In this document: piece after piece, positions 55,573 to 59,833 of the stretch | How positions within the stretch are numbered: position 1 is the stretch's first letter | Layout: every line of letters starts with the position of its first letter | Assembly (NCBI GenBank): GCA_965207885.1 | Contig: OZ242311.1 | Span: 4,672,001-4,736,000, forward strand | Direction: 5' to 3' | Length of the DNA: 64,000 nt | Origin: Candidatus Latescibacterota bacterium | GTDB taxonomy: Bacteria > Latescibacterota > UBA2968 | Translations under genes and position numbers: made by a program | Notes under the pieces: model-generated | Told to the model about the DNA's origin: nothing | What the model saw: only the letters and a program-made list of their open reading frames with translations | Databases searched by the model: none

Positions 55573-56418
55573 TCATTGCTGAGCTTCCCACTTTTCCAAA
55601 TATTCATCTAAATGTTTTTCCAAATCCAAACATGCAGTGGGATAATTATCAGTTATACGCTGAGTAGGCCGGCGATTGTGGGCAACGCAATTTCTCATCT
55701 GCTCAATGGGATCCATAAGATTTTTGAGACTGGCAAGAAACTCAGCATCTTCTTCATGCTCAACAGGAACCCGGAGTATTTCGGCACGGAAGGCGTCGTA
55801 TTCTTCTGTATTGTGGATTAACTCCAGTATGTCCGTGGCCGTCAGTTTGGACTTTGGACGCTGGTTCAGATTTATATATTGTTTAAAATTCAAGTGAAAA
55901 AACTGGTTCTCAGTTGCGATTTTCATCTGATCCTGCGTTTGTCTCCCTATAGTTTTGACTGTCTCCTCTCGAAGTAAGTTAAAGGGATCCTTGCCCTGGT
56001 AGGCATTCAGATAGATAATTGATAGGACGCGGCGCAACTTCATCTCCAACGCGAAAATCTCTTTGGCGTAAACAGCGAGTTCGCTTCGAAGCAATGGGTC
56101 CTCGAATTTCACGACGTGGAAGATAGGTGGGGTATCAGGAAGGGATGTGGCGAATTCATCAACGACCTCTCTGATAGACTCTATTTCGTCGGACAGTTCA
56201 AGAGCGAAGCCAATCAGATGATGGTGGGGCGTTATACCACCATCATCTGTAATCTCGCCACCGGAACGCTCGTAGCGAAATTCGATCATGTCGGCTATGG
56301 CGTCTTCATCAAATAAGTTAGAATTATTATACAACGCTTCGCTAAGCAAATTCGTAAGTATTTGTTGGATGTTCGTATCCAGTGCAGGATGGCAGGCGAT
56401 AAGGAATTCAAAGGTCAT
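55573..56418 (-). CDS. HEPN-domain protein (putative RNase)
   Basis: LEMKLRR helix and RNCVAH (Rx4H) motif; ATGA coupling to the S-subunit stop. Confidence 0.75.
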   Translation of the reverse strand: MTFEFLIACHPALDTNIQQILTNLLSEALYNNSNLFDEDAIADMIEFRYERSGGEITDDGGITPHHHLIGFALELSDEIESIREVVDEFATSLPDTPPIFHVVKFEDPLLRSELAVYAKEIFALEMKLRRVLSIIYLNAYQGKDPFNLLREETVKTIGRQTQDQMKIATENQFFHLNFKQYINLNQRPKSKLTATDILELIHNTEEYDAFRAEILRVPVEHEEDAEFLASLKNLMDPIEQMRNCVAHNRRPTQRITDNYPTACLDLEKHLDEYLEKWEAQQ

Positions 56419-57827
56419 GGTGAAGGAGAGCCTAAGAGTTGCTTCTCGAACCATTGCTTAGCGTCCTGCCAGCCGGATTCGGCTTCGGAACGAAGGCGAC
56501 GGGATTCTTCGCGGCGGTGGCTAACTTCGGCGGTGATCATTGACTGAGTGGAAGCATCCATTTTGGGGAAAGGAATTTTTAAAAGATCATCGCCATCTAA
56601 TCGGAACCGACTGGGTGTTGCGCCTCTACTTAACTGATACATGATTTTACGGTATAGGTCTGTTCGTAGTAACCATAGAATTGCTTCTGGCTGATGCCTT
56701 TGATTGCATCGCAAAACTAAAAACTCCGCTGAGGCAATCATTCTTCTTTCTTGTTTTGGGCAAAGAACAAATTTTGCATTAAGAATGGTAGGACCAAGTC
56801 TCGCAATAAGAATATCATTTTCCTGAACCTCAAAGAACGTCCCAGTAATATTCTTGCCCTTCTCGGTCCTAACAGTTTCGACTTGCCAGGGTTGGTTTGG
56901 TAGATCATCTATTCGTATCAAGTCAAATTGTTCTTCTGGTGAGTCCTTAGCGGGAGAGTATTTCTTTTTTACTAGAGATCCCACTATGCCGACAGTATCT
57001 TCAAATGGAAGACACTTCTCAAGTTGTAGTCCGCGATAACGCTCCGCGTTCATTACATTGGTCAGGTCTTTTGCATGAATTGCAAAGATATTTTTGGGTT
57101 GGGATGGTGGCCTAATGCCAAGGGTTTCCATAACGAAGTCGTCTAGACCTGACAGCAGCGAGTTAGCTTTTTCCAGCTTACCCTTTCGTTCAACTCGTGC
57201 CTCATCCATTACTGCGGCTAGTTCCATTTGGCGAGTTTCTGAAAATTTCGGAAATGGAAGAGTCTCAAGAAAATTAGCTGGAACTCGTTGTTGACCCGCT
57301 GAACCTGTAAAGGCATAAGTCGCAATGCGGCGCAACGTGTCTTGACTAATAAACTCAAAGACGAATTTTGGCAATATACCGGGGGCACGCACTCTAAGAA
57401 CATGGAACTCGGTCGAGCCGAAACCCACACCGTTTGGTAATCCATCTACTATGCACGATTTGCCATTTTGCATACATGGCGTAATCTTTGCCCACAGTAT
57501 ATCCCCATTGATGAAAGGAGAATATCCTTTTCGTACCTCTTTGAGTGGTCTGTTCGCAATCGTATATTGCCCTATGGTGTTGTCTGAAACCGCTTGCATT
57601 GGAATAAAACCAACAAGATCATCAGCGTCCAACCCAGAGACATCTGCTGATGGATTAACATCAACATACATCGATAGCGGATTAATAGCTGTTGGATTAC
57701 TGCCAAGCCTATTCAGAAAGAGTCGAATTTCTGGCGCATAACGTGAGGGACTAAATGAAAGTCCATCCACTTCGCCCCGCTTCACTGCAAAACATTGAGC
57801 CTTGCCAAGTTGGGCGGGGCTTATACG
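56415..57827 (-). CDS. Restriction-modification specificity (HsdS-like, two-TRD) subunit; start unclear, possibly reached by -1 frameshift
   Basis: TRD1 GDILWAKITPCMQNGK/GSTEFHVLR/GSAGQQRVP; TRD2 NDILIARL/SAEFLVLR; no convincing RBS plus ATG near the RM stop. Confidence 0.85.
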   Translation of the reverse strand, partial: RISPAQLGKAQCFAVKRGEVDGLSFSPSRYAPEIRLFLNRLGSNPTAINPLSMYVDVNPSADVSGLDADDLVGFIPMQAVSDNTIGQYTIANRPLKEVRKGYSPFINGDILWAKITPCMQNGKSCIVDGLPNGVGFGSTEFHVLRVRAPGILPKFVFEFISQDTLRRIATYAFTGSAGQQRVPANFLETLPFPKFSETRQMELAAVMDEARVERKGKLEKANSLLSGLDDFVMETLGIRPPSQPKNIFAIHAKDLTNVMNAERYRGLQLEKCLPFEDTVGIVGSLVKKKYSPAKDSPEEQFDLIRIDDLPNQPWQVETVRTEKGKNITGTFFEVQENDILIARLGPTILNAKFVLCPKQERRMIASAEFLVLRCNQRHQPEAILWLLRTDLYRKIMYQLSRGATPSRFRLDGDDLLKIPFPKMDASTQSMITAEVSHRREESRRLRSEAESGWQDAKQWFEKQLLGSPSP

Positions 57828-59833
57828 AAAAAAGGTGTGGGATCCTTCTGAAATTCCTGCCACTGACCAACGAGACCTGTGCCGGGAATTATTTCTCGGC
57901 GGCGTTCGCTCCAACCAGATTCTTTGGGATTCACTGTGATCCACTCATAAAACACGCGGTAGTCAAATAGATCGCAGCTATGTCGCTCTATCTTCTCCAC
58001 GCCTGCTTTTTCCTTCTCGACGCTCACTGCAAAAGTTTTGCGTCCGGTAGCATCGTAACCGATATTTTCAGCCAATGCCATGAAGATGGGTTTTTCATCG
58101 GGTACATTCTCGCCGTTGTCCAAACGGCGCAGAAAGATAATACTTGTCTTTACCCCTGCGTCGTAGTGCTGAAAGGCGAACTGCGGAAGACTAACTACGG
58201 CCAGAAGTTGGAAGTGTTTCAGTATCCAATGCCGCACACCTTCGAGGGATGAGTTGGTTAGGATACCATCGGGTAACACCACAGCGGCGCGGCCTGTACC
58301 GGGTTTGAGAAAGGCGTGTACCCGTTCCAAGAATAGGATCTCCGTTTTAACGCTGGTGCGTGCTTTCAATGCTTTTGCACCGTTTTTTGCGCTTGTGCCA
58401 TCCCCATTCCTATTCGGGCGACCAGGATAGTTTTTGCTGAGGTATGCCTGCAATTCGAACTGATCCAGATAACCATCTCCTTTTTCAGTGCGTCTGATGA
58501 CAGATCCGAAAGGCGGGTTGGTGAGAATTAGATCAAATTTGCCTTCGTCCAAGCCGAGATTCTTGCCGTGAATCTTGTTGAGAAAATCCAGGGCATCGTG
58601 ACCGACAATGTTGGTGTGACCATCGTCGTGAATAATCATGTTCATCTTTGCAACGCGGGCGAGTTCGTCATTTACCTCAATGCCGAAGAGGTTCTTTTCG
58701 GCGAAGTCATGCCAATATTGAAAATGCTGAATACTCTCTGGAGTAAAACGTTGGTTAGCCTCGCGGCGAACGTGGTCAAGGGCGTAGAGCAGGAAGCCGC
58801 CAGAGCCACAAGCGGGATCGAGAACAAGGTCGTCGCGTTTTGGATCAAACATCTCAACAGCGAAGGCTATTAGTTCGCGGGGTGTGAAGTACTGGCCGAA
58901 GTCACCCTTGAAGAAGCCTCCCATAAACTCCTCGAAAGCCACGCCTTTGGTATCCAGTTCCGTGCGGTCGAGTGAGATGCCCTCCAGATGCTCCACACAC
59001 TGAGCCAAAATAGGCGGGTCAATATTGATGTGATCAGTGAAAACATCAGGTTCGCGTTGTTGTTCAGCGTCGTAGAGCCGGTTAATGCGCTCGGCGAGAT
59101 CAATAGCGGTTTCTCCATCGCTGCGCTGAAAGTCATAGGGTTGACCCTCTTGCCTTTCCAGATTTTTTTCGTCGCGATGTTTGATAAAGACCAGCTTGGA
59201 AAACTCGCCAAATGCGGCGATAGGACTACGGCGTCCACCCTCCCACAGTGTTTGATGGCACTTGCGGATCGCTGCGCGGAGTTCTTCTCGTGGGATCGCG
59301 GCAAGATCGCGGCCCGGCCTGTCCTTCAAGAAACGCCATTTGGGTGGCCTGCCGTAGTTTACCGGAATATCAGTGAGAAGGTTTCGATCCCGCTCTCCGG
59401 GGGGAAATTTGTCGAAGCGCAATAGGCGGCGGGTAAGACCAGCGATGGCACCACAGTATTTTGCTGCCAAACTGGCGCGATAGCCACAGGCTTGTTCGAT
59501 GGATTGGTTGAACTCTGCGTCGGATACGTCTGCACGTTTGCACTCGAAAACGAAATACGGGGACTTGTGTTCGTCGTCTTCATAAATGACGAGGTCTGCA
59601 TAATTACTTGGCGTCCTCCCTGGAACACTGACTTCAAATCCAATTCGATTTGGCGGATATTGATATTTACAAATAAGCTCTGCCCATAGTTCAGCGCGGA
59701 CTTTTTCCTCTGGGTCAGTCCATTGTTCAGAGCGGTTGGCTGCAATGTAGCGAATGCGTTCGGACGTACCCTCGCCAGTAATTTCAGCGTATTTACGGTC
59801 AAAGGCCTGGTCGAGAAAATTTTTATAATTCAT
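57821..59833 (-). CDS. Fused endonuclease (HSDR_N-type PD-(D/E)XK) and N6-adenine methyltransferase, Type IIB/IIG-like RM subunit
   Basis: PEEKVR..ADLVIY..FECK; GQYFTPR; motif I DPACGSGGFL; motif IV NPPF; VLPDGIL; no HsdR helicase in the locus. Confidence 0.9.
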   Translation of the reverse strand: MNYKNFLDQAFDRKYAEITGEGTSERIRYIAANRSEQWTDPEEKVRAELWAELICKYQYPPNRIGFEVSVPGRTPSNYADLVIYEDDEHKSPYFVFECKRADVSDAEFNQSIEQACGYRASLAAKYCGAIAGLTRRLLRFDKFPPGERDRNLLTDIPVNYGRPPKWRFLKDRPGRDLAAIPREELRAAIRKCHQTLWEGGRRSPIAAFGEFSKLVFIKHRDEKNLERQEGQPYDFQRSDGETAIDLAERINRLYDAEQQREPDVFTDHINIDPPILAQCVEHLEGISLDRTELDTKGVAFEEFMGGFFKGDFGQYFTPRELIAFAVEMFDPKRDDLVLDPACGSGGFLLYALDHVRREANQRFTPESIQHFQYWHDFAEKNLFGIEVNDELARVAKMNMIIHDDGHTNIVGHDALDFLNKIHGKNLGLDEGKFDLILTNPPFGSVIRRTEKGDGYLDQFELQAYLSKNYPGRPNRNGDGTSAKNGAKALKARTSVKTEILFLERVHAFLKPGTGRAAVVLPDGILTNSSLEGVRHWILKHFQLLAVVSLPQFAFQHYDAGVKTSIIFLRRLDNGENVPDEKPIFMALAENIGYDATGRKTFAVSVEKEKAGVEKIERHSCDLFDYRVFYEWITVNPKESGWSERRREIIPGTGLVGQWQEFQKDPTPFFV

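Follow-up and report, generated by a model that had tools for sequence, protein, structure and literature searches.

The genes for the RM and S subunits of a Type IIB-like restriction-modification system in a Candidatus Latescibacterota bacterium most likely meet at a programmed -1 ribosomal frameshift cassette. They lie on the minus strand of the window, by which we mean the whole 64,000-nucleotide (nt) stretch analysed (contig OZ242311.1, positions 4,672,001 to 4,736,000), and encode a combined nuclease and methylase (RM) and a specificity subunit (S). Of 83 homologous junctions from about a dozen phyla, 80 retain a slippery heptamer just before the RM stop codon, the -1 phase of the S frame, the position of the stop and a downstream hairpin. 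Such conservation had been named as the decisive test by the initial annotation of this DNA, which proposed a frameshift here from the window's letters. The signal is beyond chance because these four features are kept together in so many homologous junctions; in the window taken alone, the heptamer and the fold are not beyond chance.

On the minus strand the RM gene ends CAG AAG GAT CCC ACA CCT TTT TTC GTA TAA. The run of six T residues (T6, 57833-57828) belongs to an X_XXY_YYZ heptamer in the upstream frame, on which both tRNAs would be able to re-pair at -1 (Table 1). The S frame is -1 relative to RM, is open from 57944 to 56415 and reads ..TFFRISPAQLGKAQCFAVKRGE...; a shift into it is predicted to yield a trans-frame product of 669 + 470 = 1139 amino acids (aa). 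The sequence, the heptamer (57833-57827), a Shine-Dalgarno (SD)-like AAGGA (57847-57843) and the open S frame are all where the initial annotation had placed them. TTTTTTC occurs 36 times on the two strands of the window against 20.3 +/- 4.8 expected, a count reached by 1 of 100 shuffles, which is a mild excess of T-rich heptamers. The 76-nt minimum-free-energy (MFE) fold of the window has z = -1.97, and 7 of 200 shuffles fold as well. A scan of 57500-58100 against Rfam returned no frameshift element, nor any other match, at E <= 1.

Table 1. Features of the RM/S locus in the window (positions are those of the 64,000-nt stretch)
Feature	Position	Strand	Basis or remark
RM gene, 670 aa, 0-frame product	57821..59833	-	Open reading frame (ORF) and translation
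S (specificity) coding sequence, -1 frame, 470 aa after the shift, two target recognition domains	56415..57827	-	PADLOC Specificity_I PDLC03127 (E 4.5e-53)
Slippery heptamer T_TTT_TTC	57827..57833	-	X_XXY_YYZ in the RM frame, over codons CCT TTT TTC
Spacer GTA TAA, 6 nt, holding the 0-frame stop (TAA, 57821-57823)	57821..57826	-	Sequence
Putative stimulatory hairpin, 47 nt	57774..57820	-	Begins 6 nt past the heptamer; codes for S-frame residues SPAQLGKAQCFAVKRG as well
SD-like AAGGA, 9 nt 5' of the heptamer	57843..57847	-	Present in the window; not a conserved element
GTG in the S frame, 30 nt 5' of the heptamer; candidate internal S start, rejected as a general start	57861..57863	-	
GTG in the S frame within the hairpin; alternative S start from the initial annotation, rejected	57783..57785	-	
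Third operon gene, 281 aa, HEPN-like as a lead only	55573..56418	-	ATG overlaps the S stop as ATGA

The 83 junctions comprise the window, two relatives from its genus (L002 and L003) and 80 public genome loci at 61-80% protein identity, the latter being the best 80 of 395 RM relatives found by scanning species-representative genomes. In 80 of the 83 a T_TTT_TT[C/A/T] heptamer is in phase and S lies in the -1 frame; 78 of these junctions are distinct, and 77 of the distinct ones could be folded. As the junctions are related by descent and horizontal transfer, the counts given here overstate independence, and naive probabilities would overstate significance. Of the 78 distinct junctions, 67 carry TTTTTTC, 8 TTTTTTA and 3 TTTTTTT. 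The 0-frame stop follows the heptamer after 3 nt in 76 and directly (0 nt) in two, and is TAA in 44, TAG in 24 and TGA in 10; the stop itself is under selection.

The synonymous sites of the heptamer, and even non-synonymous ones, are constrained beyond the conservation of the protein. The codon 5' of the Phe-Phe pair is CCT in 66 of the distinct junctions, CTT in 4, TCT in 3, CGT in 3, AGT in 1 and GAT in 1. Its third base is thus T in 78 of 78 across five amino acids (P/L/S/R/D), against a median third-position T of 0.155 in the same genes. Likewise, the first Phe codon is TTT in all 78, against a median TTT share of 0.34 among the Phe codons of these genes, and the last heptamer codon is TTC (67), TTA (8) or TTT (3), TTG being absent. 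The Pro codon two positions upstream varies freely (CCG 36, CCA 24, CCC 10, CCT 6), and such free variation at flanking synonymous sites provides an internal control for the constraint on the heptamer. Such constraint marks selection that acts on the RNA heptamer and on tRNA re-pairing and not on the encoded peptide.

The two genus relatives, L002 (3474-3500) and L003 (3477-3503), which are the same as L093 and L029 and whose RM is 77% identical, have a T8 run followed by GA. Their heptamer is T_TTT_TTT, abutted by the TGA stop, and a TTG in the S frame overlaps that stop; frameshifting, reinitiation at the TTG and transcript slippage are each conceivable at these two junctions. The genus relatives carry Latescibacterota labels (L029, L093).

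Downstream of the heptamer, the predicted hairpin of the window has an outer stem pairing GCCCCGC (57820-57814) with GCGGGGC (57780-57774), a middle stem pairing 57810-57808 with 57786-57784, and an inner stem pairing GCAAGGC (57805-57799) with GUUUUGC (57793-57787) around a loop at 57798-57794. The initial annotation had drawn a small hairpin beginning 5 nt downstream; that is only a possible local fold, and folding and comparison replace it with this larger, two-part structure (57774-57820). When the 77 foldable junctions are each folded singly, every one forms a stem of 5 or more stacked pairs that begins 5-7 nt past the heptamer, inside the 5-9 nt at which a structure is looked for downstream of a -1 site. 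The hairpin is long in 67 of the 77 (median span 47 nt, 17 base pairs); in the other 10 the distal arm is lost, and a short local GC hairpin uses the same 5' arm. Across the 77 folds the median MFE is -29.4 kcal/mol and the median z is -3.7, with z < -2 in 61. A covariance model of the hairpin finds exactly one match per RM locus and none elsewhere in 812,566 bases, the rest of the window included.

On the plain MAFFT alignment RNAalifold recovered no more than 4 pairs, in a register that was shifted, and for this reason the hairpin was assessed by per-sequence folding, a hand-written structure and covariance-model realignment. With the window structure written by hand onto the MAFFT alignment, the outer helix is 91.5% paired and 4 of its 7 pairs show changes on both sides, and after covariance-model realignment 11 of 14 pairs are changed on both sides. 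In the realigned set, which was fitted to the structure and leans towards the model, and against shuffle controls that ignore kinship, 49 cells are changed on both sides compared with 20.3 +/- 3.6 in shuffles (0 of 500 reach 49), and 81.6% of cells are paired compared with 41-52% when the partners are slid. Some of the compensating changes are non-synonymous in S.

Behind the heptamer, S is a long -1 ORF that encodes a functional domain and has no conserved start of its own, which bears out the earlier remark that S lacks a convincing start. An S-frame stop lies within 9 codons 5' of the heptamer in 22 of the 78 junctions, and 14 of the 78 have no ATG, GTG or TTG between the upstream S-frame stop and +60 nt. 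The GTG at 57785, which the initial annotation rightly put in the S frame, has a start codon as its equivalent (+48) in 24 of 78 junctions (GTG 22, ATG 1, TTG 1; the others have GTC, GTA, CTC, GTT, ATC and so on) and on that count was rejected as the general S start. A second in-frame GTG, at 57863-57861, had been overlooked. An [A/G]TG stands 30 nt 5' of the heptamer in about 54 of 80 junctions, and the window's GTG at this place was rejected as a general start as well, being a by-product of conserved RM Gln-Trp codons.

It is improbable that S is instead made separately, by independent or coupled initiation at a non-conserved or non-canonical codon, with the hairpin serving as a coupling device that terminating ribosomes melt. 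Candidate codons are available, namely the -30 [A/G]TG carried by about two thirds of junctions, an NTA overlapping the stop, the TTG overlapping TGA in the T8 variants L002 and L003, and the +48 GTG; the window itself has in-frame GTGs at 57863 and 57785. EcoKI offers a precedent, as its hsdM and hsdS are described as overlapping and translationally coupled (PMC3510504). However, no one of these positions is conserved as a start, and in the window none of these codons is preceded by an SD. Separate initiation would also leave unexplained why the third base before Phe-Phe is always T, why the first Phe codon is always TTT and why TTG is never the last codon. Moreover, where coupling occurs in the same genome and operon it shows clear SD-ATG or ATGA overlaps. 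A paralogous nuclease-methylase/S pair of the same genome (L096, G000:C1:4554500-4561000), 34% identical, has GGAGG-N7-ATG overlapping the M stop (ATGGTAG), and the ATGA overlap between S and the third gene of the operon is ordinary translational coupling. Ordinary coupling is thus used elsewhere but not at the RM/S junction. The paralogous pair was also seen at L004 and L006.

Hardly likely either is a programmed transcriptional realignment, in which RNA polymerase would slip on the T run and add one U to some transcripts, so that RM-S is translated from these. The conserved core is indeed a homopolymer run, the genus relatives carry T8, and A7/U7 runs are described as under-represented in coding sequence, possibly as a result of such slippage (PMC4066793). 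Yet in 75 of the 78 distinct junctions the run is no longer than T6, the next base being C or A. A run of T6 is shorter than those known for efficient bacterial transcriptional slippage. The strictly spaced hairpin could form only behind the polymerase, too late to act on it, and the absence of TTG beside eight occurrences of TTA follows the rules of tRNA re-pairing, not those of a polymerase. In the T8 variants of the window's genus, transcriptional slippage may add to the effect.

Very little credence can be given to a broken fusion gene, whether a pseudogene, a homopolymer sequencing error or a phase-variable tract that toggles RM-S by replication slippage: one extra T would join the frames and L028, with T7, is fused, phase-variable homopolymers are described as common in restriction-modification genes (PMC3711429) and many of the loci are long-read metagenome-assembled genomes (MAGs), but 80 of 83 junctions, isolates and short-read assemblies included, share one run length and frame, the 0-frame stop keeps its distance while varying among TAA, TAG and TGA, a covarying hairpin is maintained, and the fused L028 has lost its hairpin and so is not a simple ON variant. 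The T6 site is covered without an inserted or deleted letter in Logan contigs from four runs (X1, possibly the source and at a depth of about 56, X5, X6 and X7), which are assembled short-read contigs, not raw reads; X5, X6 and X7 come from other studies, X6 being a 2019 metagenome. Judging by contig names, short-read assemblers produced at least 20 of the 80 loci, and two loci are isolates. The indel-free run contigs, the short-read and isolate loci and the selected 0-frame stop together exclude a systematic homopolymer error. T6 is also short for slipped-strand switching. The run length that the initial annotation had wanted confirmed is accordingly T6 in the contigs of all four runs, and neither a T7 run giving a single ORF, nor a variable phase or heptamer, nor an S start at GTG 57785, the three findings it had listed as contrary to a frameshift, was encountered.

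The three junctions without the heptamer (L016, 5990-6070; L028, 5985-6065; L076, 6008-6090) are in-frame RM-half-S fusions with one recognition domain, and their T runs are T5, T7 and T5, respectively. Between Phe-Phe and the first recognition-domain strand their linker has 11 residues, as predicted for the trans-frame product of the window. The hairpin is absent from all three (MFE -12.0, -14.7 and -17.4; z -1.0, +0.2 and +0.7). Because fusions encoding a similar peptide have lost it, the hairpin is tied to the frameshift layout and not to the protein. Together with these three loci, the proteins P0011, P0023, P0052, P0104 and P0115 make up a set of RM-half-S fusions of 775-917 aa that share the linker length and have neither heptamer nor hairpin; the fusions added by protein searches measure 825-917 aa, and one full-length in-frame fusion of 1154 aa (P0122) was found on a single contig. 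RM and S are a textbook binding pair, and a tether between them is physically possible because natural in-frame fusions exist.

Several points weigh against a frameshift cassette, beginning with the shifted RNAalifold register and the leaning of the realigned set and its controls described above. Conservation of the hairpin could in part be a protein constraint, as it overlaps S coding sequence (SPA..GKA.CFAVKRG). Some independent initiation of S is possible in members with the -30 [A/G]TG or a +48 start, the window included. An SD-like AGGA, GGAG or GAGG at -18..-6 occurs in just 22 of the 78 distinct junctions, where the background is 10% of windows of 13 nt, and an upstream SD was rejected as a conserved stimulator; of the dnaX-type layout first proposed for the window, the heptamer and hairpin stand and the SD does not. 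In 63 of 80 junctions the S frame stays open for 430 aa or more; in 14 of 80 it is shorter than this without running off the contig, most of these looking broken. Finally, covalent RM-S alone may suffice in some relatives, as P0122 suggests.

Among the loci with short S frames (L018, L019, L027, L033, L035, L038, L051, L064, L067, L068, L072, L080), most frames seem to go on past the stop or in another frame, pointing to broken S genes or assembly errors in MAGs. In two more, L042 and L055, the frameshift cassette is kept though the S frame ends like a half S.

If the junction is a frameshift cassette, most ribosomes would read CCU UUU UUC GUA and stop at UAA, releasing the 670-aa RM. With UUU and UUC in the P and A sites, the 47-nt GC-rich hairpin would stand at the mRNA entry channel and resist unwinding, and in a fraction of ribosomes both tRNA-Phe would slip back one base onto U_UUU_UU. 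These ribosomes would proceed across the hairpin in the S frame, reading CGU AUA AGC CCC ..., to give the 1139-aa RM-S. Because S has no conserved start codon, this fusion would be the main or only route to S. Free RM and RM-S would then assemble an (RM)2S unit, as in Type IIB enzymes such as BsaXI, which is described as (RM)2S (PMC11997821). We infer the slippage, its efficiency and its stoichiometric purpose from comparative and computational evidence. A 2:1 stoichiometry would fit the preponderance of a half S among the in-frame fusions, two copies of which would give RM2S, and it would fit an engineered EcoKI M-S fusion described as active but in need of extra free M (PMC3510504). The half-S ends of L042 and L055 with their cassette, and the one full-length fusion, fit the stoichiometry idea less simply.

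Rather doubtful is the further idea that the frameshift sets the balance between modification and restriction, RM-S being a self-sufficient methyltransferase core and cleavage requiring a second, free RM. If so, frameshift efficiency would fix or tune the level of restriction, with a possible response to temperature by way of hairpin stability, or to phage-induced translation stress by way of Phe-tRNA supply. The family would on this view stand as a living link between Type IIB enzymes of the two-gene (RM + S) and the single-chain (RMS) kind, here with a HEPN-like third gene coupled to it.

The proposed cassette can be compared with several known systems. Like E. coli dnaX (tau/gamma), it pairs a heptamer with a downstream stem-loop, and one mRNA would give two products of one complex in a fixed proportion. 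The dnaX shift yields the shorter product, the dnaX heptamer is A_AAA_AAG and an upstream SD acts as stimulator, whereas at RM/S the shifted product would be a long fusion to another subunit, the heptamer is U_UUU_UUC and an SD is not conserved. The OrfA-OrfB junctions of the insertion sequences (IS) IS3 and IS911 likewise shift to -1 shortly before the upstream ORF ends, which joins it to a downstream ORF without efficient initiation, and have a downstream hairpin or pseudoknot; unlike these transposases, RM/S is a cellular defence enzyme, and its cassette persists in about a dozen phyla, at protein identities of 50-80%. The H_HH.U_UU.Y class, to which U_UU.U_UU.C belongs, is described as among the most efficient in E. 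coli and is found in IS frameshift sites (PMC4066793). Eight of the 78 junctions carry U_UUU_UUA with a spaced stem-loop, as does HIV-1 gag-pol (PMC4373837), although there the ribosomes are eukaryotic and not bacterial, and the two are not related by descent.

Among restriction enzymes, the (RM)2S enzymes BsaXI and BcgI resemble the window's pair in that RM is homologous to RM.BsaXI and S is separate with two recognition domains. In contrast, the RM and S of BsaXI are described as two reading frames without recoding, RM.BsaXI is larger (916 versus 670 aa) and has a 'knob' and a 'paddle', and the window's family also carries a third, HEPN-like gene. Type IIB enzymes are described as consisting either of RM and S or of a single RMS chain with S tethered by a flexible loop (PMC11997821). 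Single-chain RMS enzymes of the CjeI/AloI type have S tethered to the methylase C-terminus, and the window's family has natural in-frame RM-half-S relatives. However, the CjeI/AloI type and the engineered EcoKI M-S are fixed in frame, whereas the window's pair would give a free and a fused form by recoding. Phase-variable restriction-modification tracts also place a homopolymer at a frame junction, but at RM/S the T6 is fixed (75 of 78 distinct junctions), as are the codon phase and the stop, and the hairpin covaries.

To our knowledge, programmed frameshifting is established for very few bacterial cellular genes. We found no published report of frameshifting in a restriction-modification or anti-phage system, the supplementary cluster lists of the GeneTack and heptamer surveys, which could hold one, not being covered. 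The main texts of the GeneTack survey and of a 2025 restriction-modification review, and part of a 2016 recoding review, contain nothing relevant on frameshifting in restriction-modification. We rate the RM/S junction as a known recoding mechanism in what would be a new gene class, with an unusually clean comparative signature. If this is correct, the S genes of the family, 395 relatives of which were found in species-representative genomes, are annotated with wrong starts or as fragments, and a compact signal of heptamer and hairpin works across about a dozen phyla. The pairing of an M-S fusion with free M, engineered for EcoKI, would already exist in nature, and multi-subunit defence enzymes would have a route to control subunit ratio that links the two-gene and single-chain forms.

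The RM polypeptide has the make-up of a Type IIB enzyme, joining an N-terminal PD-(D/E)xK nuclease to an N6-adenine methylase. Its N-terminal domain is of the kind found at the N-terminus of Type I R proteins (HSDR_N_2, Pfam PF13588, E 9.2e-11), and its methylase domain is a gamma-class N6-adenine methyltransferase with the motif NPPF (Pfam PF02384, E 4e-35). The best PADLOC model is MTase_I PDLC03030 (E 4.7e-119), and the closest solved relative is RM.BsaXI (8w0p_A, E 1.8e-35), which aligns with residues 13-571 and spans both nuclease and methylase. Residues D80, E97 and K99 and the NPPF motif are invariant across 29 homologs. S matches Type I specificity models of PADLOC over both halves. 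Membership of the MADS system was rejected on the NCBIfam scores, NF047738 (MAD2 methylase) reaching 301 bits against a cut-off of 720 and NF047740 (MAD5 S) 34 bits against a cut-off of 400.

The ORFs adjoining RM and S have no Pfam, NCBIfam or PADLOC match and, the third gene excepted, are not conserved; an hsdR elsewhere in the genome was not searched for. The third gene has no Pfam, NCBIfam or PADLOC match either. Its first ESM Atlas match (0.97) is an 'Apea-like HEPN domain-containing protein', and the neighbours there include clusters bearing HEPN_Swt1. A relative of it follows S in 29 of the 84 sequences searched by tblastn, the window included, and the whole system may consist of RM, S and a HEPN-type protein.

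A protein search with RM returned 7790 proteins at E <= 1e-30 among 8000 candidates, the best 120 of them 73-93% identical; judged from these sequences, the RM family is very conserved and widely transferred. Among the C-termini of the best 120 and of the window's own protein, 115 end ...F-F/L-(V/A/G/M) or ...FF, five belong to proteins longer than 720 aa and one is cut short. By their record labels, the best 80 loci span about a dozen phyla and include both MAGs and isolates: Chloroflexota, Latescibacterota, Acidobacteriota, Binatia, Gemmatimonas, Bacillota, Pseudomonadota, Desulfobulbia/Syntrophus, Cyanobacteria, Armatimonadales, Verrucomicrobiota, Bifidobacteriaceae and Ignavibacteria-type. 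The plasmid collection searched gave no close relative, the six records found all being below 45% identity. Homologs on viral contigs keep the heptamer, a 6-nt spacer and complementary arms of the C5GA.../...CG5 type in L098 (65% identity), L099 and L100 (50-52%); L101 (47%) is a fixed fusion, and in L102 (48%) a half S whose ATG overlaps occupies the +1 frame. The viral contigs L098-L102, at 47-65% identity, thus hold three layouts, namely the frameshift cassette, the fixed fusion and the +1 half S with its ATG. Sequence near-identical to 57300-58300 of the window occurs in runs from several studies whose labels are sponge and marine metagenomes.

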